A stretch of DNA of 64,000 nt from Candidatus Methylomirabilia bacterium (GTDB lineage: Bacteria > Methylomirabilota > Methylomirabilia > Rokubacteriales > CSP1-6), in assembly GCA_041490825.1 (NCBI GenBank), contig JBGPTW010000007.1, positions 561-64,560 of the forward strand. The letters run 5' to 3'. The notes under the pieces are model-generated. The model was not told the DNA's origin and did no database searches. It saw nothing but the letters and a program-made list of their open reading frames with translations. This document shows positions 5,523 through 58,586 of this stretch, piece by piece (position 1 is the first letter of the stretch; each line of letters begins with the position of its first letter). The position numbers and the translations under genes were made by a program.

Positions 5523-6683
5523 TCAGCTCCAGAGGCGTTGGGTCGCGAGATCGGCGCCCGCGCGCAGCGTCCGGAGCTTCGCCCACACGACGCTTTCCGC
5601 GACGGCTTCCGTCCCCGCGAACGTGCCGAAGCCGCAGTCGACCGACGCGATCACACGGCTGCGGTCGCCCACGGCATCGACGACCTGGCAGATCCGATCG
5701 GCGACGACCTCCGGGTGCTCGACGAAGTTCGTTGTCGAATCGATCACGCCGGGCAGCAGCAGCATTGAGTCGGGCAGCGGATGTCGTTTGAAGACCTTGT
5801 ACTCGTGCGCGTGCCGCGGGTTGGCGAGCTCGATGGACAGCGCGCCGACGCGAGCCCGGTAGAGCATCGGCAGGATCGCCTCGAGCGGCACGTCGTGGAC
5901 GTGAGGGCCGTCGTAGTTGCCCCAGCAGACGTGCAGGCGAACGCGATCCGGCGGGACGTTAGCGATGGCGCGGTTGACGGCGTCGACGTGCAGCTCCACC
6001 GCCTGCAAGAAGTGGTCGAGCGGATCGTTCTGGAAGAATCGCGTTCGCTCCATCGCGAGGTCGGGACAGTCGACCTGCAGCAGGAAGCCGCGCGCGTGAA
6101 TCAGCTCGTATTCCTTCCGCATCTCGCGCGCGAGCGCCCGGACGTAGCGCTCGTGCGAGCCGTAGAACCCGTCGAGCAGGATCGTTGCGATGGTCCCGGG
6201 CGAGGCCGCGGTCATGAACGGCTCGGCGAACTTCCGCGCCTGCTTGTCCAGTGCCTGGGAGAACACGTCGCATTCTCTGGCGGCCTCGCTCAGGTCCACG
6301 TACTGCACGTCCGCGATCGCCTGAGGCGCGTCGGAGATCCTCGCGCCATGCCGCCGGCGGTCGGCCAGCATCGCGGCGTAGTCCGGAAAGTCCACGAGAT
6401 CGCGCGCGAGCGGCCGGCGACTTTCGCCGCCGAAGCCGCGCATCCGCCGCGCCGGATACGTCGAGAATCCGACGCGCGGCTGCTCGCCGTCGTTGCCGAT
6501 GTCGATGCCGGCCTCGAGCTGCCGGCGCACGACCATCGCGACCGCCGCCTCGACCTGGCGCGCCAGCTCCGCCTCGTCGATGGACTCGCCGCGGTCCTGA
6601 CGCACCAGGAGATCGCGCAGGACTGGATTGCGAGGCAAGCTGCCGACGTGCGTGGTCAAGATCCGCTGATCGCTCTTGCGCAT
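5523..6683 (-). CDS. Cobalamin-independent methionine synthase (MetE C-terminal domain-like, UROD/MetE family) protein
   Basis: 386 aa, MRKSDQRILTTHVGSLPRNP...VDCGFGTFAG, typical of the YxjG/MetE-like family. Confidence 0.7.
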   Translation of the reverse strand: MRKSDQRILTTHVGSLPRNPVLRDLLVRQDRGESIDEAELARQVEAAVAMVVRRQLEAGIDIGNDGEQPRVGFSTYPARRMRGFGGESRRPLARDLVDFPDYAAMLADRRRHGARISDAPQAIADVQYVDLSEAARECDVFSQALDKQARKFAEPFMTAASPGTIATILLDGFYGSHERYVRALAREMRKEYELIHARGFLLQVDCPDLAMERTRFFQNDPLDHFLQAVELHVDAVNRAIANVPPDRVRLHVCWGNYDGPHVHDVPLEAILPMLYRARVGALSIELANPRHAHEYKVFKRHPLPDSMLLLPGVIDSTTNFVEHPEVVADRICQVVDAVGDRSRVIASVDCGFGTFAGTEAVAESVVWAKLRTLRAGADLATQRLWS

Positions 6684-6788
6684 GGCTCTGTCCTCTGCGT
6701 CAGGTTCGTGGCGGACGTCAGGTCAGGGTCGCAGACGCGACACTAGCCGGTGTCATGAACGCTCGCCGTCAATCGAGCGCGTGGCGTC

Positions 6789-6935
6789 GCGGGCCGGCCG
6801 GGTCGGTGAGGGGCCTCTGACCACGAGGCCCTTTGACCGATGACCCGCGAGCCGTTCCCACTCGCGGCCTGGTTGCCCTCGATAGGACGCTCCGGGAACG
6901 GGTCCGCCGGCCCCCCACCGACCCGGCCGGCCCGC
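6789..6935 (-). promoter_or_regulatory. Structured 5' leader of the MetE-like gene; candidate riboswitch or regulatory RNA of unassigned class
   Basis: A 22-bp long-range inverted repeat (6789-6812 vs 6912-6935) encloses nested stems (ccgttccc/gggaacgg, cgcgag/ctcgcg, gggcctc/gaggccc). It lies 100-250 nt upstream of the start codon. Confidence 0.3.
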
Positions 6936-7070
6936 GGCGACACGCTGTCCCCGGCCTCGGTCGTTCGGCGATGATCGGGGCAAAGACGCCTGTGGTCAGA
7001 GGACCCCGGCTGCCTGTCTCCCGCCGGATCACCGGTCGGCGCGCGCGTCGGTCGTTCATGAATAATCGCA

Positions 7071-7514
7071 CTAGCCCGTGTCGCCGACGAGCTTGGCCGC
7101 TTCGATCCCGGCGACCGCGCACGCCTCGTCCTTGTCGGAGACGTCGCCGGAAATCCCGACAGCGCCGATCACTTCGCCGGCGGTGTTCTTGACCAGCACG
7201 CCCCCGGCGGCAGGGACGACGCCGTGGCCGCCCGAGATGGCGTTCAGCGCCGTGAAGAACGTCGCCTGCGCCGGCTGCTCGGCGACGCGGCGGAAGAGCG
7301 CCCGCGAGCCCATGCCCATGCCGAGCGCGCCCCACGCCTTGCCGGTGGCGATCTGCGGCCGGATGATCCCGGCGCCGTCCTCGCGCGCGAACGCTTTGAG
7401 ATGTCCGCCGGCGTCGAGCACGGCAATGGCGAGCGGCGCGCAGCCGGTCTCGCGTCCCTTCTTGAGCGCCGCCTCGATGATGGTGCCCGCTTGCTGCAGC
7501 GTGATCCCGGCCAT
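7071..7514 (-). CDS. GlcG/HbpS-like heme-binding protein (DUF336)
   Basis: 147 aa, MAGITLQQAGTIIEAALKKGRETGCAPLAIAVLDAGGHL. Confidence 0.7.
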   Translation of the reverse strand: MAGITLQQAGTIIEAALKKGRETGCAPLAIAVLDAGGHLKAFAREDGAGIIRPQIATGKAWGALGMGMGSRALFRRVAEQPAQATFFTALNAISGGHGVVPAAGGVLVKNTAGEVIGAVGISGDVSDKDEACAVAGIEAAKLVGDTG

Positions 7515-7535
7515 GGCTGGTCCTTTCTTTTCGCT

Positions 7536-7907: not shown

Positions 7908-8204
7908 CTACCGCTCGCGGTAGGTGTCCTCGCGGCGGAGACCGCAGCGCTTTAGGACCACCTCACGGCCGGCCACCTCGTAGCGGAACCGCCAGCGACC
8001 AAGGCTAAGCCGCCACTGACCATCGTCGAGGGCAACGCCCTCGAGCTTTTTGATGTGGCGGTTCCGCGTTCGGTTCAAGGGGTCGGCGCCGAGAATGGCA
8101 ACCGCCCGCTCCTGGATGGGGGAGAAGTCCGGGTGCTGACGCAGGAGCTTCCTCGAGAGGCGCTCGTAGTGCGGGCTGGTGCGGACAAGAAACGGCGGCG
8201 TCAT
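7908..8204 (-). CDS. Type II toxin, RelE/ParE family
   Basis: 98 aa, ...WRLSLGRWRFRYEVAGREVVLKRCGLRREDTY. Its ATG overlaps the antitoxin stop (ATGA). Confidence 0.7.
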   Translation of the reverse strand: MTPPFLVRTSPHYERLSRKLLRQHPDFSPIQERAVAILGADPLNRTRNRHIKKLEGVALDDGQWRLSLGRWRFRYEVAGREVVLKRCGLRREDTYRER

Positions 8205-8494
8205 GCACTGCGACGCCGCTTCACCTTTCGCTCCTCTTCAGCACGGAGTTCCGCCAGGAACGCGGCGGCCGGCCGGCTCTTGCCGGCCCGGTACTCGGCG
8301 GTGCTCCGCCGGATGTCGGCCTGGACTTTGGGATCCTGGAGCTCGAGATAGTCCTCGAATTCGTCGATGTCCATGACGCCGGCGAGCGGGATGCCATCCT
8401 TTTCGAGGATCACATACTCCTTGTTGAGATGGACGCGCTTCACCACGGCGCCGAGGCTGTTGCGGGCCTGGGTGAGGGGGAGATGTTTGACCAT
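8201..8494 (-). CDS. Type II antitoxin, Phd/YefM family
   Basis: 97 aa, MVKHLPLTQARNSLGAVVKRVHLNKEYVILEKDGIPLAGVMDIDEFEDYLE. Confidence 0.8.
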   Translation of the reverse strand: MVKHLPLTQARNSLGAVVKRVHLNKEYVILEKDGIPLAGVMDIDEFEDYLELQDPKVQADIRRSTAEYRAGKSRPAAAFLAELRAEEERKVKRRRSA

Positions 8495-8540
8495 AGGGCG
8501 TGTGTTTTTAGCTTTGATGAGACCAACTCCTTTCGACCTG

Positions 8541-8568
8541 GTGTGTAACGATGTACACCGTTACACAC
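8541..8568. promoter_or_regulatory. Perfect palindrome gtgtgtaacg-atgtacac-cgttacacac, candidate Phd/YefM autorepressor operator
   Basis: 10-bp arms plus an 8-nt spacer that itself contains TGTACA. It lies 47-74 nt upstream of the antitoxin start. Confidence 0.45.
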
Positions 8569-11651: not shown

Positions 11652-11767
11652 GGTCGCGGGCGCGCCGGACGCGGGGGCACTCCTTCGTCTCGGAAACCCG
11701 CTCGCTCCGGAGTGCCCCCGCGTCCGCCGCTTCGCGGGCGTCACGATCTCGCCCGCGTGGTCGGGCG

Positions 11768-15122: not shown

Positions 15123-15815
15123 ATGGCGTCGGTGCTGATCGTGGCGCCGCTTGCCGGAGAGTTCGAGCCGCTCCTTCGCCATCTCCACGCGCGCGGGCAT
15201 TCGTCCGAGCCGTTCGACGCCGGCAGGATGACGTGCGCGGCGATTCCGTCGCTCGACGTGCTCATCGCGATCGGTGGCCACGGCAAAGCGCAGTTCGCGG
15301 CGCAAGCGCAGTACCTGATCAGCCGCTGTCCTGATGCGACCGCGCTCGTGTGCATCGGAGCGGCCGGACGCCTCGCCGGGCCGCTCGCGCTCGGTGACGT
15401 CGTCGTGTCGACGACCACGATCGAACACGATTTCAGGAGCCGCTTCTCCGGGCGTCCGCCGCCGCGGCACCTGCCCGATCCGAAACTGCTGGACGACTGG
15501 CAGCAGATCGCCCGCGGCCGGGCGTTTCCGTTCGGCCTTCACTTCGGCGCGATCGCGAGCGGTGACGAGGACGTGATCGACCCGGCGCGCGCGAAGGAGC
15601 TCCACGAGACGACCGGCGCGCTCTGCGTGGCGTGGGAGGGAAGTGGAGGCGCGCGTGCAGCCGCGTTCAGTGGGCTCGGGTATCTCGAGGTCCGCTGCAT
15701 CACGGACGGCGCGGATCACGATGCCGTGGCGCATTTTCGTGAGAATCTCGAACGCGTGATGCCGAATGTCGCGGATCTCCTGATCGCATGGCGCGCGGGT
15801 GGTGTCACGCGGTGA
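15123..15815 (+). CDS. Nucleoside phosphorylase-I family protein (MTA/SAH nucleosidase or futalosine hydrolase-like)
   Basis: MASVLIVAPLAGEFEPLL...AIGGHGKAQFAAQAQYLI. Confidence 0.6.
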   Translation: MASVLIVAPLAGEFEPLLRHLHARGHSSEPFDAGRMTCAAIPSLDVLIAIGGHGKAQFAAQAQYLISRCPDATALVCIGAAGRLAGPLALGDVVVSTTTIEHDFRSRFSGRPPPRHLPDPKLLDDWQQIARGRAFPFGLHFGAIASGDEDVIDPARAKELHETTGALCVAWEGSGGARAAAFSGLGYLEVRCITDGADHDAVAHFRENLERVMPNVADLLIAWRAGGVTR

Positions 15816-16245: not shown

Positions 16246-17184
16246 CTACGGGCGCAGGAGTCCGATCTCGCGCAGATAGCGCTGGACGCCGGAATGGAGC
16301 AGCTCGAGCCGCGGCGCGGCCTCGATTGTATTCTCGGCGGTCGTCTCGCGCGCTTGCGGCAGGCGCGTGGCCAGCGCGGACTGGCCCTGGTGGAGCGCGC
16401 GCGCGAGCCGATAGGCCACGCCGTCCGGCAGCGATGGGCGCGTCATGATGAGGCTCCACGATCCAACCGACACGATCGGCGTCGCCTGGCCGGGGTACGA
16501 GCCGGCGGGGATCGTCAGGCGTTTGAGGAATGCGTGCTTCGCTTGAACCTGCGTGATGCCGTCCGCGTCGGGCGCGATGAAGCGGGCGCCCTGCTCCGAT
16601 CTCGCGACGGCGATGAAGCCCGGCCACCCGATGCCGCCGCCCCAGAGCGCCGCGACGCGTCCGTCGAGCACCATCTTCGGTCCATCGCCGGCCGCGTCGA
16701 GGAGGATCGCCTGGAAGTCGCGCTGCTGGTCGAGCCCGAGACCGTCGAGCACGTAGCGCGCGAGGATCACGAGCCCGGAGCCGCGCGCGCCGAACGCCAC
16801 GGGCTTGCCTTTGAGGTCCGCGATCGAGCGCGCCGGCGAATCCGCGCGGACCACGAACATCCCGGGCGTGGAATACATCGCGGCGAGAATGCGAAGGTCC
16901 GCTTTCGCCTCGTGCAGGACCTCGCCCTGCACGAGCGCGATGTCGAGCTCGCCGGCCTCGAGCATCGGCACGTTCTCGGTGCTGCCCTTGGTGTTCTTGG
17001 TGCGCACCTCGAGCGATGCGTCGATCTCGTTGATCGTGGCCGCCACCGCGTCACCGTAGACGGGGAACCCGCCGCCCGGAGTTGCGGTGCCGAGGACGAC
17101 GACGTCCTTGCTCACGGCGCGTACCGTAGCAGCAGCGACGCGCGCAGGGCAAGCGCTCCGTGGCGCTCGTCTCGTGCGTTCCAC
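16246..17184 (-). CDS. TRAP transporter solute receptor, TAXI family. N-terminal boundary uncertain because the ORF stays open through the upstream 153-bp repeat array
   Basis: C-terminal 313 aa of ORF 16246..17658. GTG at 17184 with GGGAAG 4 nt upstream. No DctQ/DctM permease genes nearby. Confidence 0.6.
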   Translation of the reverse strand: MERTRRAPRSACPARVAAATVRAVSKDVVVLGTATPGGGFPVYGDAVAATINEIDASLEVRTKNTKGSTENVPMLEAGELDIALVQGEVLHEAKADLRILAAMYSTPGMFVVRADSPARSIADLKGKPVAFGARGSGLVILARYVLDGLGLDQQRDFQAILLDAAGDGPKMVLDGRVAALWGGGIGWPGFIAVARSEQGARFIAPDADGITQVQAKHAFLKRLTIPAGSYPGQATPIVSVGSWSLIMTRPSLPDGVAYRLARALHQGQSALATRLPQARETTAENTIEAAPRLELLHSGVQRYLREIGLLRP

Positions 17185-17208
17185 GTCACTTCCCGTTGCG
17201 CCTGCGAC

Positions 17209-17670
17209 GGGGCGGGGCCGCGCTCCGCTGAACACGCTATCCACTCTGCCGCGTCCGGCTTTCAGTTGGGGCCACGAGACTCTGCCGCTTGCTTCAGTCG
17301 GTCCGCAGAAGCCACGGTTCAGCGGAGCGCAGCCCCGCCCCGCCGCACGCACCGGCGGACGCCGGCGGGGCCGCGCTCCGCTGAACACGCTATCCACTCT
17401 GCCGCTGCCGGCTCGCGGTTGGGGCCACGAGACTCTGCCGCTTGCTTCAGTCGGTCCGCAGAAGCCACGGTTCAGCGGAGCGCAGCCCCGCCCCGCCGCA
17501 CGCACCGGCGGCCGCTGGCGGAGCCGCGCTCCGCTGAACACGCTATCCACTCTGCCGCTGCCGGCTCTCAGTTGGGGCCACGAGACTCTGACGCTTGCTT
17601 CAGTCGGTCCGCAGAAGCCACGGTTCAGCGGAGCGCAGCCCCGCCCCGCCGCACGCACCGGCGGACGCCG
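17209..17670. repeat. Tandem array, 153-bp unit x3. Each unit is a conserved ~80-bp core flanked by 23-bp inverted-repeat arms (ggcggggccgcgctccgctgaac / gttcagcggagcgcagccccgcc)
   Basis: Unit starts at 17221, 17374 and 17527, read in sequence. Related copies are at 42288-42441 and 53475-53620. Confidence 0.85.
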
Positions 17671-17756
17671 CCGGCCGCCTTGACAGCGCGCGTGTGCGCG
17701 GCATAGACATGGGGCCGGATCGCTGACCCGAGCCGCGACCGATCCGGAGGAACGCG

Positions 17757-18821
17757 ATGTCCATTCCCTCGACGATGAAGGCGGTTGTCCTCCACGGCGC
17801 CGACGAGATGCGCGTGGAGCAGCGGCGGGTGCCGGAGCTTGCTCCCGGCGAAGTGCTGCTGAAAGTGAACGTCGCGTCGATCTGCGGCACCGACGTCAAG
17901 GTGCTGCACAGGAAGCTCATGGGGCAGCCCGACGGCGACTTCATCATGGGCCATGAGTACGCCGGCACGGTGACGACGCTCGGTCCTGACGTGGACGAGT
18001 TCAAGGTCGGAGATCGCGTCGCGGTCGAGGTGCACAAGGGCTGCGAGCGCTGCGAGAACTGCATCAAGGGCTGGTACACGTCGTGTCTCAATTACGGCAA
18101 CCTCGCCAAGGGTCACCGCGCCAAGGGCCTCACGTGCGACGGCGGGTTTGCCGAATACGCGGTGAACCACATCAACACGCTCTACCGGCTGCCGGACAAT
18201 CTCACGTTCGAGCAAGCGTGCATGGTGACGACGGCGGCGTCACCGCTCTGGGCCATCGACCTGATGGGCGGCTACGTCGCCGGAGAGACGGTGCTCGTGC
18301 AGGGCCCAGGGCCGATCGGCCTCATTGCGGTCCAGCTCTGCAAGGCGCTCGGCGCCGAGCAGATCATCCTGAGCGGCACGCGCGACGAGCGTCTGGCGAT
18401 CGGCCGGCAACTCGGCGCCGACCATGTGATCAACGTGCGGCGGGAAACGCTGCTGGACCGCGTGCTGGAGATCACCGGCGGCAAGGGCGCCGATTCCGTG
18501 CTCGAGTGCGCGGGCGGCGCGACGTCGATGCAGGAGGCGCTCGAGTGCGTGAAGCGCGGCGGTCGTATCGGCGTCGTGGCCTGGTACACCGGCCCCGTGC
18601 AGATCGACATGAACCTCGCCGTGCGGAGCAACGTCCGGATCTACGCTGCGCGGGGCGAAGGCGGCATGAATTGCGGCCGGTCGCTGGCGCTGATGAGCGC
18701 CGGCAAGATCCTGGCTGACCCGATCATCACGCACCACTTCCCGCTCGAGAAGATCAATGACGCGTTCGACACGTACATGAATCGCGTCGGGAACGCCCTC
18801 AAAGTCGTTCTTCATGTTTGA
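17757..18821 (+). CDS. Zinc-dependent alcohol dehydrogenase (MDR family, threonine/sorbitol dehydrogenase-like)
   Basis: GHEYAG, the C..C..C..C structural-zinc motif, and the GPGPIG Rossmann motif. Confidence 0.85.
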   Translation: MSIPSTMKAVVLHGADEMRVEQRRVPELAPGEVLLKVNVASICGTDVKVLHRKLMGQPDGDFIMGHEYAGTVTTLGPDVDEFKVGDRVAVEVHKGCERCENCIKGWYTSCLNYGNLAKGHRAKGLTCDGGFAEYAVNHINTLYRLPDNLTFEQACMVTTAASPLWAIDLMGGYVAGETVLVQGPGPIGLIAVQLCKALGAEQIILSGTRDERLAIGRQLGADHVINVRRETLLDRVLEITGGKGADSVLECAGGATSMQEALECVKRGGRIGVVAWYTGPVQIDMNLAVRSNVRIYAARGEGGMNCGRSLALMSAGKILADPIITHHFPLEKINDAFDTYMNRVGNALKVVLHV

Positions 18822-40455: not shown

Positions 40456-42285
40456 ATGCGGCTCACCCTGGTGAAACGGCTCCTCGTCGGCACGCCCATG
40501 CCGCTCGCGCAGGCGCGGCACGAGCGGCTCCGCAAGACCGTCGCCCTCGCGGTCTTCTCGTCCGACGCCATGTCGTCGGTGGCGTACGCGACAGAGGAAA
40601 TTCTCCTCATCCTCGTGCTGGCGAGCGCGGCTGCCACGTACCTCGCCACGCCGATCGCCATCTCGATCACCGCGCTGCTGGTGATCGTCGCGATCTCCTA
40701 CCAGCAGACGATCCACGCCTACCCGAGCGGCGGCGGGTCGTACATCGTCGCGCGTGAGAACCTGGGTGCCGTGCCGGGTCTGATCGCGGCCGCGGCGTTG
40801 CTCGTCGATTACGTCCTGACGGTCTCGGTGTCAGTCGCGGCCGGGGTGGCCGCCATCACGTCGGCCGTGCCGGCGCTGGCGACGCACAAGGTCCTGATCG
40901 GCGTGGTGTGCGTCGCCGCCATCGCGAGCGCGAACATCCGTGGCGTCCGCGAGTCCGGCCGTCTCTTCGCGATCCCGACGTACTTCTTCATCGTCAGCTT
41001 CGCGCTGCTGCTGCTCGGCGGGTTCTACAAGCTTCTGACCGGCACGGCCGAGACGGCGCCATCGCCCACCGACGTGCGGATGTCCGAGCAGCTGACGTGG
41101 TTCCTGATCCTGCGCGCGTTCGCCTCGGGTTGCACGGCCATGACAGGGACGGAAGCGATCTCGAACGGTATCCCGGCGTTCCGTCCGCCCGAGTCGCGGA
41201 ACGCGGCCATCACCCTCGGCTGGATGGCGGCGATCCTCGGGACGCTGTTCATGGGCATCACGGTTCTGGCGTCGGCGTACCACGTGCTGCCCCTCGAGGA
41301 CGAGACCGTCGTTTCGCAGATCGCGCGGCGCGTGTTCGGCACGGGCCTCGCCTACTACCTGATCCAGGCGGCGACCGCCCTGATCCTCGTGCTGGCCGCC
41401 AACACCTCGTTCGCCGACTTCCCGCGCCTGTCGTCGCTCCTGGCGCGCGACCGATTCATCCCGCGTCAGTTTGCGAATCTCGGCGAGCGCCTGGTGTTCT
41501 CGAACGGGATCATGGTGCTGGCCGCGCTCGCCGCCGTGCTGATCATCGTCTTCCGCGGTGACACGCATGCCCTCATCCCGCTGTACGCGGTCGGCGTGTT
41601 CATCTCGTTCACACTCTCGCAAAGCGGGATGGTGCGCCACTGGTGGCGTCTACGGCAGACCGGCTGGCGGCATCGACTGCTGATCAACGGCGTGGGCGCC
41701 ACGGCGACCGGCATCGTGACGATCGTCATCGCGGTCACCAAGTTCACGCACGGCGCCTGGATCGTCGTGCTCGTCATCCCGATCCTGGTGGCGACCTTTC
41801 TCATCATGCGCGGCCATTACGACGAGGTTGCCTCGGAGCTGTCGCTGGAAGGCTTCGAAGGACCGCCGCCGTTTCAGCACACCATTCTCGTCGTCATCGG
41901 CGACGTCCACCGCGGCGTCGTGCGCGCGCTTCAGTATGCGAAGACACTTGCGGGCCCGGAGACGAGGGTTCGCGCCGTCTTCGTGGAGACGGATCCCGCG
42001 CGCACCGCGAAGCTCGAGGAGAAGTGGGGGAAGTGGGGCCTCGGCGTGCCCCTCATCGTGCTGACGTCACCGTACCGATCGCTGCTCCGACCGCTGCTCG
42101 ATTACCTCGACCACATCCAGTCGCTCGGCGACGATCAGATGCTGACGATCGTGCTGCCCGAGTTCCTGCCGCGGAAGTGGTGGCAGCATGTCCTCCACAA
42201 CCAGACGGCGCTGTTGATCAAAGGCGCGCTCCTGTTCCGCAAAAACACCGTGGTCGCCGACGTGCCGTATCTCCTGAAGCGCTAG
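40456..42285 (+). CDS. APC-superfamily permease with a C-terminal cytoplasmic domain
   Basis: 609 aa, multi-TM, amino-acid-permease-like N-terminal two-thirds. Confidence 0.7.
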   Translation: MRLTLVKRLLVGTPMPLAQARHERLRKTVALAVFSSDAMSSVAYATEEILLILVLASAAATYLATPIAISITALLVIVAISYQQTIHAYPSGGGSYIVARENLGAVPGLIAAAALLVDYVLTVSVSVAAGVAAITSAVPALATHKVLIGVVCVAAIASANIRGVRESGRLFAIPTYFFIVSFALLLLGGFYKLLTGTAETAPSPTDVRMSEQLTWFLILRAFASGCTAMTGTEAISNGIPAFRPPESRNAAITLGWMAAILGTLFMGITVLASAYHVLPLEDETVVSQIARRVFGTGLAYYLIQAATALILVLAANTSFADFPRLSSLLARDRFIPRQFANLGERLVFSNGIMVLAALAAVLIIVFRGDTHALIPLYAVGVFISFTLSQSGMVRHWWRLRQTGWRHRLLINGVGATATGIVTIVIAVTKFTHGAWIVVLVIPILVATFLIMRGHYDEVASELSLEGFEGPPPFQHTILVVIGDVHRGVVRALQYAKTLAGPETRVRAVFVETDPARTAKLEEKWGKWGLGVPLIVLTSPYRSLLRPLLDYLDHIQSLGDDQMLTIVLPEFLPRKWWQHVLHNQTALLIKGALLFRKNTVVADVPYLLKR

Positions 42286-42287
42286 CT

Positions 42288-42441
42288 CCTCCGCGGGTGG
42301 GGCTGGCGTCGCTCTCCCCAGAAGACGCTATCCACTTTGCTCTGTCGGCTCTCATTGGAGCCACGCATCGTCGCGCCCGGCTCAGTCAAGCCCCAGAAGC
42401 AACGCTTCTGGGGAGAGCGACGCCAGCCCCACCCGCGGAGG
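42288..42441. repeat. Palindrome-embedded repeat element: 37-bp perfect inverted-repeat arms flanking an ~80-bp conserved core (acgctatccactttgc...cagaagcaacg)
   Basis: Arms 42288-42324 / 42405-42441 read in sequence. It starts 3 nt after the stop codon of the permease. The core is homologous to units of the 17209-17670 array. Confidence 0.7.
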
Positions 42442-42613
42442 CTGAACTGTCAGTCAGGTGCTCGCAGCCCGACCACCAACACGGGTTCAGCGGCCAGGCC
42501 GCGAACAATGCGAATCAGCGGCCCACGCCCAGCAAGAACAGGATCAGGATCAGCCCGAGCGGGGCGCCAAGTAACCACAGAAGGATCAGCGCCATGATGT
42601 CTGCCTCCTTTCC

Positions 42614-43195
42614 CTACGCGACCCTGCGGGGTCGTTCCTCGTGTCGGAGCTCGCGCCACCGGTAGTACGTCAACGACATCGGTTCGCCGGAGGCCATCCA
42701 GCCACCGATCACGCTGCCGACGAGACCGATGAGCAACGCCACGAGCGTGGCAAACGCGCTGTTGCGCATCGCCGCCGCCGTCGCCTGGTCAACCGTGGTC
42801 GGCGTCGGACCCAGCACCAGGTTTCCGGCGAGTCCCCCGTACCAGCCGCCGAAGTACCGCACCGCGCCGAGCGCGCCGAGCAACAGCATCATCGGCACCG
42901 TGAGCAGCCAGGCGATCGCGCCATGCAGGATCGCGGGCTCCGACCGCTCTATCCCGGCGATGCGGGCCGCCACCCAGCCGCCGAGCACGAACGCGAAGAA
43001 CGCGCCACCGACGCTGAAGATCAGGCTCGTGAGCCGGATGTTCTTGAACGACACCGCCTTGGCGACCTCGTGCGCCCCCACGGCGAATCCGAGGAGCCCG
43101 ATGATGAGCCCGAGCGCCACCGCCGCGAGTGCCCCGACCCAGATCGCGCTCCACGCGACCGGCCACTGCCTCGCTCCTGAGTCATAGCCCTCCAT
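42614..43195 (-). CDS. Hypothetical integral membrane protein (193 aa)
   Basis: Internal ATG at 43195 with GGAGGAGG about 8 nt upstream. The upstream part of ORF 42614..44344 is Arg-rich antisense noise. Confidence 0.5.
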   Translation of the reverse strand: MEGYDSGARQWPVAWSAIWVGALAAVALGLIIGLLGFAVGAHEVAKAVSFKNIRLTSLIFSVGGAFFAFVLGGWVAARIAGIERSEPAILHGAIAWLLTVPMMLLLGALGAVRYFGGWYGGLAGNLVLGPTPTTVDQATAAAMRNSAFATLVALLIGLVGSVIGGWMASGEPMSLTYYRWRELRHEERPRRVA

Positions 43196-53445: not shown

Positions 53446-53474
53446 CGTCCTACGTCAGAATTTCGTCACCACCC

Positions 53475-53620
53475 GCGATCGACGGCCGGGCTTGCTCTCC
53501 TCAGACCCGCAATCCACTTCGCTGATACGGCTCTCGTTAGGGCCACGAGTTCGCTACGCGCGCTTCAGTCGGTCCGCAGAAGCCACGGGTCTGAGGAGAG
53601 CAAGCCCGGCCGTCGATCGC
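53475..53620. repeat. Palindrome-embedded repeat element: 34-bp perfect inverted-repeat arms flanking a conserved 78-bp core
   Basis: Arms 53475-53508 / 53587-53620. It starts 30 nt after the aldolase stop. The core ...ggctctcgttagggccacgag...gcttcagtcggtccgcagaagccac is shared with 17209-17670. Confidence 0.7.
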
Positions 53621-53748
53621 TTCCGTGATAGCACGTCTGACGTAGCCCGTAGCGCCACCGCAGAATGACTTTGGCTAGCGCGGCGTTTTGGGTCGCGCGG
53701 CCGGCCGGACCGGTTGACTTTCGGGCCTAAAAGTCGTCTACTGACTGA

Positions 53749-54159
53749 GTGGTGGCCGACGACCGAGACCTGGATCTCGCTGCTGCGTTGGGCGCAGAGC
53801 GCGAGGCCTCGACTCAGATCCTCTCACTCTACATTCCGAACAAGGACCGCCACGGTCGGCCGATCAGGACAGCCCGGTGGATTCGAGAGGCGCAGGAGAT
53901 CCTGACCAAGATTGGAGAAGGCTACACCACGACCCCGCCTCACGACGGCGGCTGGGAAACCGGGAGCGGACAGCTCCGACGCGAGAGAACCGTAATCGTG
54001 TACACGTATATCAAGCCAGAGCGGTTTCTCGCGCACGTCGGCGCGCTTCGTGAGTTTCTGCACCGTTTCGGTCGGGAGACGAACCAGGAAGTTGTCGTGG
54101 CCGAACTGAGCGGTGCTGAGGGTTCTTGGTTCTTCCGCATCAAAGAGTACGACGAATGA
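53749..54159 (+). CDS. Hypothetical protein (136 aa), first gene of an unknown pair
   Basis: GTG start. No recognisable domain. Confidence 0.4.
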   Translation: MVADDRDLDLAAALGAEREASTQILSLYIPNKDRHGRPIRTARWIREAQEILTKIGEGYTTTPPHDGGWETGSGQLRRERTVIVYTYIKPERFLAHVGALREFLHRFGRETNQEVVVAELSGAEGSWFFRIKEYDE

Positions 54160-54170
54160 CGGAGGCACGC

Positions 54171-54596
54171 ATGGCAGCCAAATTCAAAATCACGAGCCGT
54201 TCCGCTGGCGCGATTCGGCATGCGGGGATTGCCGCCCGGTCAGTGGGTCCCGAGGCGATCGCTAAAGCGCTCGGCGCCGCCGAGATCGTACCCAGGGGAA
54301 GTGTTCACGGCGCCCCGATCAGCCTGCACGCCTTGCGGCGAGAGCTGGAGAGCAGGGTTCGCTCAACGGGCGGGCGGCCGGCCCTCGAAGGAGCAACCAA
54401 GATCCAGAAGATTCCGCTGAAGCCTGAGGATTGGTCGCGGCTCGAAGAGCTAGCCGACGAGCTTGCGCGGCAAGGCGTCTCGGCGACAGCCGGCCAAGTC
54501 GCAAGCGTCATGGTGCACAGCCAACTGGAGCGCCTTGCACCATCGGCTACGCGGCAGGCCGGGATTGGCTCATCACGCTCATCATCTGGGCGGTAG
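54171..54596 (+). CDS. Hypothetical protein with a C-terminal ribbon-helix-helix-like segment
   Basis: ATG 5 nt after GGAGG and 12 nt after the upstream stop. ...TKIQKIPLKPEDWSRLEELADELARQGVSATAGQVASVMVHSQLERL. Confidence 0.4.
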   Translation: MAAKFKITSRSAGAIRHAGIAARSVGPEAIAKALGAAEIVPRGSVHGAPISLHALRRELESRVRSTGGRPALEGATKIQKIPLKPEDWSRLEELADELARQGVSATAGQVASVMVHSQLERLAPSATRQAGIGSSRSSSGR

Positions 54597-54851
54597 GATG
54601 TTCCGTCTGGATGTCTCTCTACGATTGGGCGCTGGACCGACTTGGGAGGGCTCGCGGATGGTGGCCGAGATGAAAGGCGTTTGCCGTATCGGGCTCGCTC
54701 TCCTCTGCTGCCTGCTCGCCTTCGCCGGGTCGGCTTCCGCCGAGCGCGCGTGGGTGCTGTGATGCCAGAACCGTCTCGCCAACGGATTACGGTTGGGGAG
54801 ATGGCTGAACACCTTGTAGGTTTTATCGGACAGGACACTGAGAAATTCGAA

Positions 54852-54885
54852 TGGTGGCCCCAACGGGATTCGAACCCGTGTTTGA
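54852..54885 (-). other. tRNA 3'-end fragment (T-arm, acceptor 3' strand and CCA: acgggttcgaatcccgttggggccacca). No complete cloverleaf; att-site-like remnant
   Basis: Read in sequence. No complementary 5' acceptor strand or anticodon arm upstream. Confidence 0.5.
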
Positions 54886-55379
54886 GTCGCGACCACGTTT
54901 TCGCTGAAAGTGATCGCATGTTGCGCGCTGTTTAGTTCCGAAAAAATCGGCGCGACTGAAACACGACCCACGGCGAGACAAGAATCGCCGGCACGCGAAA
55001 GCCAAGCCGTACGATCACACCTCGCTTCTTGCGACGGTGAAGAAACTCTTCAAGCTGCCGGACTTCCTCACGCGCGTGTTGGCGACGAGCGCAAAGCTCG
55101 CGCGTTGGCCGACCTTGAAGCGCACCTCGATCGCAGTCGGCTGGCCCGCGAAGATACGCTGCGCCGAGCATCGCTGCCCGAACCCGAGCGCCGCTGGCTC
55201 GTCGAGCATCGCCCCGAAGCCGCCAAGCACTGGAACCTCCTGACGGACTGGACCGCAGATGCCCTCCGCTACACCGCCTGAATTACCAAATCCGTGGGCC
55301 TGCTGACGGACCCCGCGAGCAGGCGGCGGGTCAAGGGTCGCCGAAGGCGACGAGCGGAGCGAGATCTACTGGCGGATAT

Positions 55380-55566
55380 GTCTTTTTATCAACATTATTA
55401 GTGCCTTATGGGAGACCTGCCTATCTGATGTTGTTCATGTTTGACACATGTTCACGTTTGGTGTACATGAGAATTAACTGAACATAAATTGTGGTCGTTC
55501 ATAACTTCATGATGTTCACGTAACGTGAACATGTATATAAAATGAACAGATGGTAAGGACTAAGCC
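55380..55566 (+). promoter_or_regulatory. Markedly AT-rich promoter/operator region with palindromes (TGTTCACG-TAA-CGTGAACA; CATGT-N5-ACATG; repeated TGTTCA/TGAACA half-sites)
   Basis: Read in sequence immediately upstream of the ATG at 55567. Confidence 0.4.
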
Positions 55567-56634
55567 ATGGCCCCACGAACAGAGCCGCATAAGCGAGACC
55601 TGAGACTCTTGGATGACGCCCTCGGCGCGTTAACGCGTACAACTGGGCTTAAAGCGACCGTTACCGCCCGCGAGCCCACACGCGCAACAGCCGCACGCGC
55701 CGGCGCGATGATTGAGATCCACGCGAATGGCAAGCGCTTCCCGTTCTTTGCCGAAGTCAAGGCTGTGGATCGCGTCGTCGCGCTTGCGACCATCAAGAAC
55801 CAGTTCGGAAAGCACGCCAAGCGGGGCGTGCTTGTCACGCCCTACCTCACGGCGGAGCTTGCCGATCACTGCCGCAAGGAACTCGACCTTCACTTCATCG
55901 ACACTGCCGGCAACGCGTACCTGCGAGCGCCAGGCCTCTACGTCTTTGTCCGTGGGGAGCGCCCGCCAACCACAGCGATGGCCATGGGCACTCGTGGCGG
56001 CGGCACCGCGACCGCACTCCGGGTCGTCTTCGCCCTGCTCTGCAAACCCGAGCTCCTCAACGCGCCATATAGAAACATTGTTGAAGTCGCCGACGTCGCC
56101 CTGGGTGCAGTCGGTTGCGTCTTCTTCGATCTCCAGGGCCGAGGTTACATTGCAGGAGGGTTACGGAAGCGCAACCGCCGCTTACTGGAGCCTGATCGCC
56201 TCCTTGACGAATGGGTCACCAATTTCCCTGTCAAACTGCGTCCGAAGCTCAATCCACGCCGTTTTCAGGCTCCTGACCCAGGGTGGTGGGAACAAGCGCG
56301 GCTCGATCGCGGCGCGCGCTGGGGAGGCGAAATCGCCGCAGCAAAACTAACCGGCCATCTCAAGCCGGCGACTTACACGATCTACTTAGACAGACACAGC
56401 GCTGCCGAGACTATCGCCACACTCGTGAAGCAACACCGGCTGCGTGCTGATCCCCGCGGCAACGTCGAGATTCTCGACGCATTTTGGACTTTCCATCTCG
56501 AGGGCACTCAGCTAGACGTTGTTCCGCCACTTCTCGTCTATGCGGATCTCATGGCCACTCTCGATCCGCGCAACCTCGAAGTCGCAAAGCAAGTCCGCGA
56601 ACAGTACATCAAGCATGCTCTCCGTCCCGTCTGA
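55567..56634 (+). CDS. Hypothetical protein, upstream partner of a nucleotidyltransferase (possible AbiEi-like antitoxin or regulator)
   Basis: 355 aa. Its 3' end overlaps the downstream gene by 20 nt. Partner-based inference only. Confidence 0.35.
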   Translation: MAPRTEPHKRDLRLLDDALGALTRTTGLKATVTAREPTRATAARAGAMIEIHANGKRFPFFAEVKAVDRVVALATIKNQFGKHAKRGVLVTPYLTAELADHCRKELDLHFIDTAGNAYLRAPGLYVFVRGERPPTTAMAMGTRGGGTATALRVVFALLCKPELLNAPYRNIVEVADVALGAVGCVFFDLQGRGYIAGGLRKRNRRLLEPDRLLDEWVTNFPVKLRPKLNPRRFQAPDPGWWEQARLDRGARWGGEIAAAKLTGHLKPATYTIYLDRHSAAETIATLVKQHRLRADPRGNVEILDAFWTFHLEGTQLDVVPPLLVYADLMATLDPRNLEVAKQVREQYIKHALRPV

Positions 56635-57478
56635 GCGTTCCCTCCCAGCGAGAACACTCGAAGTCTTGAGGCTGGTGGATCGCGTTGCGCGAGAGCTGCG
56701 GGTCGCTTATTTCGTGACAGGCGCGATCGCACGGGACATTCTCCTGCATGGTGTTTTCGGTATCGACCCCGGCCGAGGAACACTGGATGTAGACCTCGCC
56801 GTAGCCGTGCAGAATTGGCCGCAGTTCGAGTTGATTAAGACGCGCCTCGTCGCGACGAACGCATTTACTGCCGAAGAAAGAATGCCTCATCGGCTCTTTC
56901 ATCGCGAAGACGCGAGTGAGAAAGCTTATCCGCTCGATCTCCTCCCTTTCGGTGGTATCGAACAGCCTCCGAACAAAATCGTCTGGCCTCCGGAGCTCTC
57001 CATCGTCATGAACGTGGCTGGTTATCGAGAGGCGCTGGCTGCTGCACAAGACGTTGAGGTCGCTACAGGCTTCGTCGTGCCTGTCGCCTCGTTGCCGGGC
57101 CTCGCCATACTGAAGCTGCTAGCGTGGGCTGACCGCGGCATCGAAAATCCGAAAGATGCCGTCGATCTCGTTACGCTGCTGCGCTGGTATGGCGGAGCCG
57201 GCAACGAAGACCGACTCTTCGGCGAAGAGATGAGTCTCCTCGAGAGTCTGGGTTACAACATGGATCTCGCCGGTCCGCAGCTTCTCGGCAAAGACGCCGC
57301 TCGGATCACCACAACGGGGACTCGCAACCTAGCTCTCGCGCTCCTCGACGATGCGGTGACCCTGGAGCGCCTCACACGAGACATGGCAAGGGCATTCCGC
57401 GGCGCCGAAGATCCCATCGGTGAGGCCGAGGCTTTCATCGCGCAATTCAAGACCGGGTTGCAGGCGGCCTCACCATAA
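56615..57478 (+). CDS. Nucleotidyltransferase of the AbiEii/AbiGii toxin family type (Pol-beta-like NTase fold)
   Basis: YFVTGAIARDILLHGVFGIDPGRGTLDVDLAV matches the GG.A......R.T.DID-type NTase motif. 287 aa. Confidence 0.5.
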   Translation: MLSVPSERSLPARTLEVLRLVDRVARELRVAYFVTGAIARDILLHGVFGIDPGRGTLDVDLAVAVQNWPQFELIKTRLVATNAFTAEERMPHRLFHREDASEKAYPLDLLPFGGIEQPPNKIVWPPELSIVMNVAGYREALAAAQDVEVATGFVVPVASLPGLAILKLLAWADRGIENPKDAVDLVTLLRWYGGAGNEDRLFGEEMSLLESLGYNMDLAGPQLLGKDAARITTTGTRNLALALLDDAVTLERLTRDMARAFRGAEDPIGEAEAFIAQFKTGLQAASP

Positions 57479-57868
57479 CCCCCGCCGACTCGGGTGTTCC
57501 GCAAATGTTGACGTTCAACAAGTGTTGAAATGTCAACGGCCCGCAGAGTCGGCAGCCCAGAAACTGAGTCGAGAATGCCAGGCTAGGCTACGCGGGTGCG
57601 GCGCACCCCCGAGAAATCCGGCAGGCTGGCTGCGGGCGTTTGAGCCGATGAACGAAGCTGATACCTGTCGCAAGTTCATCGCTCCACGCCTCTAGGCCGT
57701 GCGTGGCTTGTACGCCCTGAGGTGCGCAGCCTCGACGACCGCCCAGAATCGCTCTGGCCGCTCCACGCCCGGTGACGTCGTTTTTGTCCATCTTGTCCAT
57801 CCCTTTTCGATGACTGACTGTCAGTGCTCGACTGACGGTCAGTCCCAGACTGAATAGTGGAGCGAGGA

Positions 57869-58285
57869 TCACACCGAAATGATGGTCAGCTTGAAAGGCC
57901 GAACCTCCCGAATCGCGGCGAAATCTCTCGCGTTGCCCGTCACCACGACCGCTCCGATGGAGCGGGCCGACAGAGCGATCAGCACGTCATTCATCAGGGA
58001 AGAAGGACCTGGGGAGCCGCGCGATTCCTGGAGCGCCCGCAACACGTGTCCCGCGTCCTCGTACACCACGCGAGACGGAAGCAGAATGCGGCCAGCCCGA
58101 TCAAAGGCCGCGACCACGCTGCGCACGAGGCGTCGATCACGAACGGAGAACGCGCCGGCGTAGAGCTCCAGCATGACCAACGCACTCAGATACTTGACCG
58201 CATCACGCTGGAAGACCACCCGTTCGTGGAGACCAGCGTTCAGCCAGTCGATATAGAGGTTCGTATCGATGACGACTCGGCGCAT
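57869..58285 (-). CDS. vapC: PIN-domain toxin VapC
   Basis: MRRVVIDTNLYIDWL. Internal ATG at 58285. Confidence 0.8.
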   Translation of the reverse strand: MRRVVIDTNLYIDWLNAGLHERVVFQRDAVKYLSALVMLELYAGAFSVRDRRLVRSVVAAFDRAGRILLPSRVVYEDAGHVLRALQESRGSPGPSSLMNDVLIALSARSIGAVVVTGNARDFAAIREVRPFKLTIISV

Positions 58286-58286
58286 C

Positions 58287-58481
58287 TCAGAAGACGCGCC
58301 GGATCTTGCCCTTTCCGCGCGCAACCCGGAGCGCCCGGTCGATGCCCGCCTCTGTCACCACCAGGTCGAGCGCACGATCGAGTGTCTCCGTCTCCGTCTT
58401 CGCGGCGAGCGCGCGGCGCGCGCGGTCGAGCTTCCGTTGGTCGAGCTGCACGTGCTTGTGTCGGAGCCCAGTCGCCATCAT
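58287..58481 (-). CDS. vapB: Antitoxin VapB-like (64 aa)
   Basis: ATG after AAAGGGGGGA. MMATGLRHKHVQLDQRKLDRARRALAAKTE... Its stop lies 1 nt before the vapC ATG. Confidence 0.55.
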   Translation of the reverse strand: MMATGLRHKHVQLDQRKLDRARRALAAKTETETLDRALDLVVTEAGIDRALRVARGKGKIRRVF

Positions 58482-58586
58482 CGGTCCCCCCTTTCGCAAT
58501 TCGCGACGATGTACACAGAATAACGATTCATGAACATCAGTGCAACGACGAGCGTGTAGATAGCGGGGGGACCCGGAGCCGCGAGT

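Follow-up and report, generated by a model that had tools for sequence, protein, structure and literature searches.

A hairpin of 154 nt, with long arms that pair without fault around an asymmetric middle, lies just past the stop codon of an amino-acid permease gene in a genome of Candidatus Methylomirabilota/Rokubacteria. The question raised by this locus is which part of it is the repeat, i.e., a core that landed in a terminator palindrome of the host, as an earlier note on this DNA had proposed, or the entire hairpin. Small repeats that fold into hairpins influence the intergenic regions of bacteria, with effects on mRNA ends, genome rearrangement and metagenome assembly (contigs of the same strain end within copies described here), but very little is known about such repeats in uncultured phyla, e.g., Methylomirabilota. 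All positions below refer to the window, the 64-kb stretch of DNA that was analyzed. The family found in it has two oddities: the asymmetric middle is conserved and not the ends, and the arms are flawless within copies while diverging between them. It is a natural test case for homogenization of arms at the DNA level versus selection at the RNA level.

The hairpin at the permease stop codon and its family

The arms of the inverted repeat are 37 nt each and 100% complementary, with 80 nt between them, and the element starts 3 nt past the permease TAG at 42283-42285 (Table 1). Both points had been read correctly from the sequence in the earlier note. Given the composition of the window, the chance expectation for a perfect inverted repeat of at least 35 nt with a spacer of at most 200 nt is ~5e-13. 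A single long hairpin is predicted on either strand, with RNA folding energies of -117 and -124 kcal/mol on the two strands (z = -14.4 and ~-13) and -69 kcal/mol when folded as single-stranded DNA. The element sits within a 328-nt gap separating convergent genes. The gene facing the permease encodes a 193-aa membrane protein, for which a Pfam search found no family, and has a codon-position GC of 0.65/0.53/0.90. It is followed on the minus strand by a putative ORF of 26 codons (42516-42596), read by eye, that has a GGAGG ribosome-binding site and stops 75 nt short of the element; its predicted peptide, MALILLWLLGAPLGLILILFLLGVGR, is very hydrophobic. Two further assemblies of the same strain (L001 and L002) carry the element in identical sequence and orientation.

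Table 1. Features of the three hairpin loci and their surroundings, as positions in the window.
Feature	Position	Strand	Remarks
Left arm, 37 nt	42288..42324	+	37/37 Watson-Crick with right arm; 28 G-C, 0 G.T
Asymmetric conserved core, 80 nt	42325..42404	+	nhmmer E=1e-17 vs family core profile
Right arm, 37 nt	42405..42441	+	100% complementary to left arm
Permease gene upstream of the 42288 element	40456..42285	+	Pfam AA_permease_2, 1e-35 (APC/amino-acid permease)
Convergent gene downstream of the 42288 element, 193-aa membrane protein	42614..43195	-	Gene called in L001
Tandem array, three units (17200-17350, 17364-17503, 17517-17656)	17200..17674	+	Period 153 nt, 95% identity
Third locus, 35-nt perfect arms, 76-nt core	53475..53620	+	30 nt past aldolase stop
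Aldolase gene, upstream of the 53475 copy	52444-53445		Gene call from L104
Outer stem at 53475, left half, CTACGTCAGA	53450..53459	+	Perfect inverted copy of right flank
Outer stem at 53475, right half, TCTGACGTAG	53636..53645	+	TCTGACG common with L106 post-stop mini-hairpin

Searching the window with a profile of the core identified a hairpin family with five members, each in plus-strand orientation, that occupy three loci; no sixth match was found even at E = 100. The three copies counted previously are thus right as a number of loci, not of copies. The cores are homologous over their full length (nhmmer E 1e-17 to 1e-26). The homology noted earlier at the core end was borne out, as CCCCAGAAGCAACG at 42288 and CCGCAGAAGCCACG in the other copies match at 12/14 positions, and so was the view that the 42288 core is the most diverged of the three: it is 81% and 73% identical to the cores at 17234 and 53510, respectively, versus 85% between those two. 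Family members have G+C-rich arms of 34-37 bp and cores of 76-83 nt. The invariant core blocks are ATCCACT, CGGCT, TT.G.GCCACG, TCAGTC and CC.CAGAAGC.ACG; the most conserved blocks are in the central core, and the arm ends vary among loci. The number of independent loci is three, and all statistics on the family come from this very small sample.

The tandem array is recovered by TRF at 17211-17674 (period 153, 3.0 copies, 95% identity), and the 3 x 153-nt arrangement takes in a 24-nt spacer. To its left is a minus-strand NMT1_3 solute-binding gene (16246-17184), whose GTG start at 17184, with a GGGAAG ribosome-binding site, is 15 nt from the array; to its right, an ADH gene starts at 17757. 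A contig from sample 3300053056 (L099, positions 1-300, compared with 17364-17700) has an ADH-side unit of the second-unit type that is joined straight to the terminal flank. That assembly has one array unit fewer, either as true copy-number variation or as an assembly collapse.

Every copy is intergenic. The 42288 copy lies between convergent genes, the 53475 copy between co-directional genes and the array between divergent genes; thus, the family has no single regulatory position. Short-read contigs of the same strain end inside copies, as expected for a repeat. The copies are distinguished by 1-nt indels and share no conserved reading frame, and these indels rule out a core-encoded peptide. 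A small hairpin within the core (GGCUC...GGGCC) has variants that stay paired through G.U or U-A, on the plus strand only. An internal tandem half-repeat of the core was rejected as a family trait, its signal being significant in the array copy only.

The window contains other hairpins. A large one at 6779-7006 has 37-nt arms that are 92% complementary and a 93-nt loop, and overlaps a second inverted repeat of 29 nt (6810-6838 / 6978-7006). The genes on either side of it, HbpS-like (7071-7535) and Meth_synt_2-like (5523-6722), are both on the minus strand, and it has no Rfam match. At 11662-11730, 11 nt past the stop of a BNR/sortilin-like gene, is a plain post-stop hairpin with a 22-bp stem and a 25-nt loop, an example of an ordinary 3'-end hairpin in this genome. 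The hairpins at 6779-6945 and 11662-11730 were excluded as family members, their loops and arms being unrelated. Hairpins of the same dimensions as the family were also seen in distant soil bacteria, at 1045-1204 and 6754-6896 of an Armatimonadota MAG contig (L060) and at 15339-15485 of a contig from an unclassified bacterium (L051). They have perfect 29-41-nt arms and 78-89-nt loops, and they too were rejected as members because neither loops nor arms are related to the family; they might reflect the same kind of process, or coincidence.

Arm pairing and distribution

The arms are related between loci. The left arms of the three loci align mutually with 23-26 matches (p 0.015-0.046 per pair vs. 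shuffles), which is a weak homology, with indels, drawn from three loci only. Arm identity between loci is 71-81%, compared with 73-85% for the cores, and the whole hairpin has diverged by roughly 20-27%. The inner parts of the arms have the common consensus GCTCTCC.CAGA. Homology between loci stops at the outer ends of the arms, and no significant homology was found in the flanks beyond them (the left flanks of the array and of the 53475 copy are borderline, p = 0.05). Since the arms are homologous and as similar as the cores, they appear to have traveled with the core. On this comparison, the long arms would belong to the repeat and are probably not pre-existing host palindromes.

Within copies, the arms pair perfectly. 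There are 37/37 Watson-Crick pairs at 42288 and 35/35 at 53475, with no G.T among these 72 pairs, and each substitution or indel in an arm has a mirror change in the partner arm. Arms that drifted to the same extent as the cores should have 10.6 and 7.6 broken pairs at 42288 and 53475, respectively (P = 4e-6 and 2e-4). The flawless arms at 42288, which are also the longest, conflict with the suggestion that its divergent core marks an older insertion. The array units have 1-3 arm mismatches, of which three are A.C and one is C.C. Mirrored substitutions and indels together with perfect pairing point to the whole hairpin as the repeat unit and to pairing that is actively maintained. The lack of wobble pairs and the mirrored indels favor copying of DNA from arm to arm, and selection on a folded RNA is the less likely cause of the pairing.

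Relatives at the orthologous loci have 80-86% protein identity. Downstream of the permease orthologs (80 species-representative loci and three metagenome contigs, permeases 83% identical), neither the element nor any large palindrome is present. The element is absent from all orthologous loci examined. The upstream kdpFABC-porin-permease synteny is kept in the relatives, while the convergent gene downstream, which touches or overlaps the stop, is a different one each time. The gene after the permease ortholog differs in nearly every relative (L018-L047, L100-L103), with the upstream order conserved across Methylomirabilota; thus, the position downstream of the permease is a recurrent rearrangement breakpoint.

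Further copies were sought more broadly. The core profile had no match in ~1.5 Mb of relatives' DNA, and a verified pattern of the 5' core had none in 185,579 species-representative genomes. No similar DNA was found in plasmids and phages (BLASTN) or in viral contigs (pattern), and a six-frame translation of the elements, a chimeric query for spurious ORFs called over further copies, gave no match. Arms without a core were found neither in the window nor in the ~1.5 Mb of relatives' DNA. These comparisons support the element as a probable lineage-specific gain. So far, the family has been seen only in one uncultured soil Methylomirabilota/Rokubacteria bacterium.

The aldolase locus gives some indication of how a copy may have arrived. 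The 53475 element is absent downstream of the aldolase orthologs of relatives. In the closest relative (L106, 86% protein identity), the sequence after the stop is TAG-T-CGTC-TCT-GACGAC, a tiny hairpin with a stem of 4-6 bp, not 35 bp. At the same site in the window, TAG-CGTC is followed by a block of 186 nt (53450-53635), which L106 lacks, and the sequence then continues with TCTGACGTAG. The split match to the mini-hairpin of L106 has a p of about 0.004 vs. shuffles, for a statistic defined after the pattern was seen. The block opens with CTACGTCAGA, which adds a 10-bp outer stem to the predicted fold of the 53475 hairpin. The pattern suggests insertion of the 53475 element, long arms included, into a tiny hairpin after the stop, followed by growth of the palindrome into flanking DNA. 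Extension of an arm by template switching is consistent with the 10-nt stretch that repeats the right flank in inverted form. The idea of insertion into terminator palindromes holds in part, for a lineage-specific gain and maybe for a small post-stop hairpin at 53475, but not for the long arms as host sequence.

A lower-GC island (53700-58550, 59-61% vs. 67% for the window) begins right after the 53475 copy. It carries an AbiEi/AbiEii pair (55567-56634 and 56519/57857-58669, plus strand), a PIN-domain gene with a small partner and several family-less ORFs. The island resembles a defence or toxin-antitoxin gene cluster gained by horizontal transfer. A possible operator or promoter for the abiE operon is an AT-rich segment (55432-55548) shortly before the AbiEi start (55567), in which repeated ATGTTCA/TGAACAT motifs form imperfect inverted repeats. 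Elsewhere in the window, a further toxin-antitoxin pair on the minus strand (7908-8560) consists of a Phd/YefM-type antitoxin gene (8201-8560) and the small ORF (7908-8237) that overlaps it as its partner.

Possible origins of the family

The explanation we favor, although we would give it only about an even chance of being correct, is a lineage-restricted REPIN- or MITE-like hairpin repeat with arms maintained at the DNA level. The repeat unit would be the whole non-coding hairpin of ~150 nt, made up of G+C-rich arms and a better-conserved asymmetric core. It may have spread into intergenic DNA like REPIN- or MITE-type non-autonomous elements, and any mobilizing enzyme would be encoded beyond the window. 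Local amplification by tandem duplication would have produced the 3 x 153-nt array. The arms would change about as fast as the core yet stay Watson-Crick paired if one arm is repeatedly copied from its partner, possibly via template switching during replication or hairpin repair.

We infer both the mobility of the family and the arm-to-arm copying of DNA from sequence comparison. For mobility, the evidence is confined to the dispersed copies and their absence in relatives, since target-site duplications and strongly conserved termini are lacking and the window has no mobilizing gene. No direct repeat flanks the arms at any locus, and the flanks are unrelated between loci. Genes for a transposase, RAYT, recombinase or reverse transcriptase are not found in the 64-kb window (for RAYT, nor in an extra 6.5 kb), which holds ordinary metabolic, transport and two-component genes and toxin-antitoxin pairs. 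Two findings run counter to the REPIN/MITE-like reading. A conserved middle with variable ends is the reverse of what is seen in REPINs and typical MITEs, and all copies share one orientation, with G.U pairing in the core on the plus strand only. The shared orientation and the strand-specific pairing hint at an RNA-level constraint.

Such a constraint is the basis of one alternative, in which the copies form a family of structured plus-strand RNAs, either small RNAs or 3'-UTR elements. The stem would then be under selection as double-stranded RNA, e.g., as an RNase III site, a block to exonucleases or a platform for proteins, and the core would be the functional module. We consider this alternative unlikely. 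Two of the five plus-strand copies lie within 3-30 nt after plus-strand genes, but the array is upstream of the promoter-like TTGACA of a plus-strand gene and beside a minus-strand start, where plus-strand transcription is not expected. The predicted folds are extremely stable; however, the two perfect copies have 0 G.U in 72 arm pairs and the array mismatches are A.C on the plus strand, which is atypical of selection at the RNA level. The core is conserved above the expectation for junk and its small hairpin keeps pairing on the plus strand only, but the core fold has no compensatory double changes and the element is not conserved in any relative examined. Nor does Rfam lend support. Rfam 15 has no match in the window at gathering thresholds, and in E-value mode only generic long-hairpin models of miRNA precursors appear, at 23-43 bits versus thresholds of 77-197. 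Quite unlikely, in our judgment, is the scenario closest to the earlier note, a mobile unit consisting of the core only (~70-80 nt) that integrates into the loop of host terminator palindromes, so that the arms differ for each copy. In the 42288 copy, the left arm has CCCCAGAAG at its inner end and the core has a second CCCCAGAAG at its 3' end, with CAACG and the right arm next; the pair looks as a 9-bp target duplication would if the target hairpin had a loop of 5 nt. However, the CCCCAGAAG site is an identical 15-mer (TCCGCAGAAGCCACG) at the other two loci, whose arms end differently (TCCGCTGAAC, TCCTCAGACC); thus, the putative duplication was inherited with the core. Although two of the three loci are directly after stop codons, the array lies between divergent promoters. 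A relative has, in intact form, the small post-stop hairpin in which the 53475 copy seems to lie, but this apparent empty site has the short stem described above. Plain long post-stop hairpins do exist in the genome, e.g., 11662-11730, and some insertion sequences (IS1397/ISKpn1, IS110 family) target REP palindromes; against this, no arm-like palindrome without a core was found in the window or in relatives, and the arms are homologous between loci over their whole length, to the same degree as the cores.

A further alternative is an inverton, in which a site-specific recombinase flips the 80-nt core between the inverted repeats. Perfect inverted repeats of 35-37 bp around a short segment are what inverton finders target, and the inner-arm consensus could be a recombinase site, but the window has no recombinase gene and the core has the same orientation in every copy in the window and in L001, L002, L098, L099 and L104 (assemblies, not reads). 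The array is placed between divergent genes, where a switchable promoter makes sense; however, no core contains a sigma-70-like promoter, an invertase would destabilize tandem direct copies that share arms, and the 42288 copy lies between convergent 3' ends. We regard the inverton as extremely improbable. A sigma-54 or sigma-70 promoter inside the core was also rejected, as the motif spacing is unfit by eye and the scans are empty (the sigma-70-like scan covered the three loci). The readings as a retron, a toxin-antitoxin RNA array or CRISPR fail for want of a reverse transcriptase, toxin or cas context, the units being identical. For a retron ncRNA (msr-msd) in particular, inverted repeats are present but there is no reverse transcriptase beside any copy or in the window.

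Returning to the REPIN/MITE-like repeat, a role at 42288 may follow from the fold itself. The position after the permease stop had been called typical of an intrinsic terminator, which does not describe the family: the array is between divergent gene starts, and no copy is followed by a U-tract. A scan for U-tract terminators found none at the three loci on either strand, and there are no T runs after the arms. Most probably, the hairpin at 42288 would act, as a by-product, as a bidirectional, U-tract-independent roadblock to transcription and as protection of the 3' end. We also considered a new kind of hairpin-borne mobile element, in which the ~80-nt core is the module recognized by an enzyme and the arms are re-synthesized from each other at each copying or repair event and extended into the flank. 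Re-synthesis of the arms would explain why each copy has its own self-complementary arms, as well as the inverted copy of the right flank at 53475, but we think it very doubtful. If true, renewal of the arms with every round of copying would be a novel mode of repeat propagation. Otherwise, this is one more lineage-specific repeat family, of practical weight for assembly and annotation.

Comparison with known systems

Intrinsic (Rho-independent) terminators resemble the 42288 element in being G+C-rich hairpins right after a stop codon, here in a convergent gap. They differ in having stems of 5-15 bp and loops of 3-8 nt, versus a 37-bp stem and a structured loop of 80 nt, and in the U-tract, which is missing here on either strand; in addition, one family locus is not at a 3' end. 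IS1397/ISKpn1, which insert in the loops of REP/BIME sequences, and the IS110-family elements that insert in REPs are 1-1.5 kb long and encode their own transposase. Integration into the loop or center of a hairpin is shared with these elements if the 53475 copy did enter the tiny post-stop hairpin, but the unit inserted here is non-coding and brings its own long arms.

The Correia elements of Neisseria and the ERIC/IRU sequences of enterobacteria are bacterial MITEs that form long hairpins as RNA. These intergenic repeats of 100-150 nt have a central region between terminal inverted repeats, and in many cases they are transcribed together with neighboring genes, whose mRNA stability or termination they alter. 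Their terminal inverted repeats are conserved, and Correia elements have a TA target duplication. The present family is likewise an intergenic hairpin repeat with inverted repeats around a center. In contrast, it has no target duplication, and its arms differ by 20-30% between loci while being perfectly paired within a copy.

Template switching is known to copy one arm of an inverted repeat onto the other, which homogenizes the arms and extends them into the flank (PMC7202029, PMC8604942, PMC13100816). Arms without mismatches, mirrored indels and the inverted flank copy of 10 nt at 53450-53459 are all in line with this quasipalindrome correction. However, it is a mutational mechanism and not a family of elements, and it has been described for short repeats with short spacers, whereas the spacer here is 80 nt.

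For REPINs, the gene of the cognate RAYT (the Y1 HUH transposase that mobilizes them) is usually flanked by REPs. Like the family described here, REPINs are short, non-coding intergenic hairpins of ~100-150 nt that are restricted to lineages, occur as single copies and as tandem clusters including flanks, and have no transposase adjacent to most copies. In both, the stem is kept by compensatory changes. Intergenic location, compensatory stem changes and tandem clusters with flanking sequence have been described for REPINs (PMC3116915). The two differ in what is conserved. REPINs have invariant inverted REP ends of 16-25 nt and a variable, almost fully paired middle, whereas in this family conservation is lowest at the ends, and the ~80-nt middle is asymmetric, largely unpaired and conserved. 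Without the conserved ends and the target duplication that define those elements, the family is still closest in behavior to REPINs, and it is also close to hairpin-forming MITEs.
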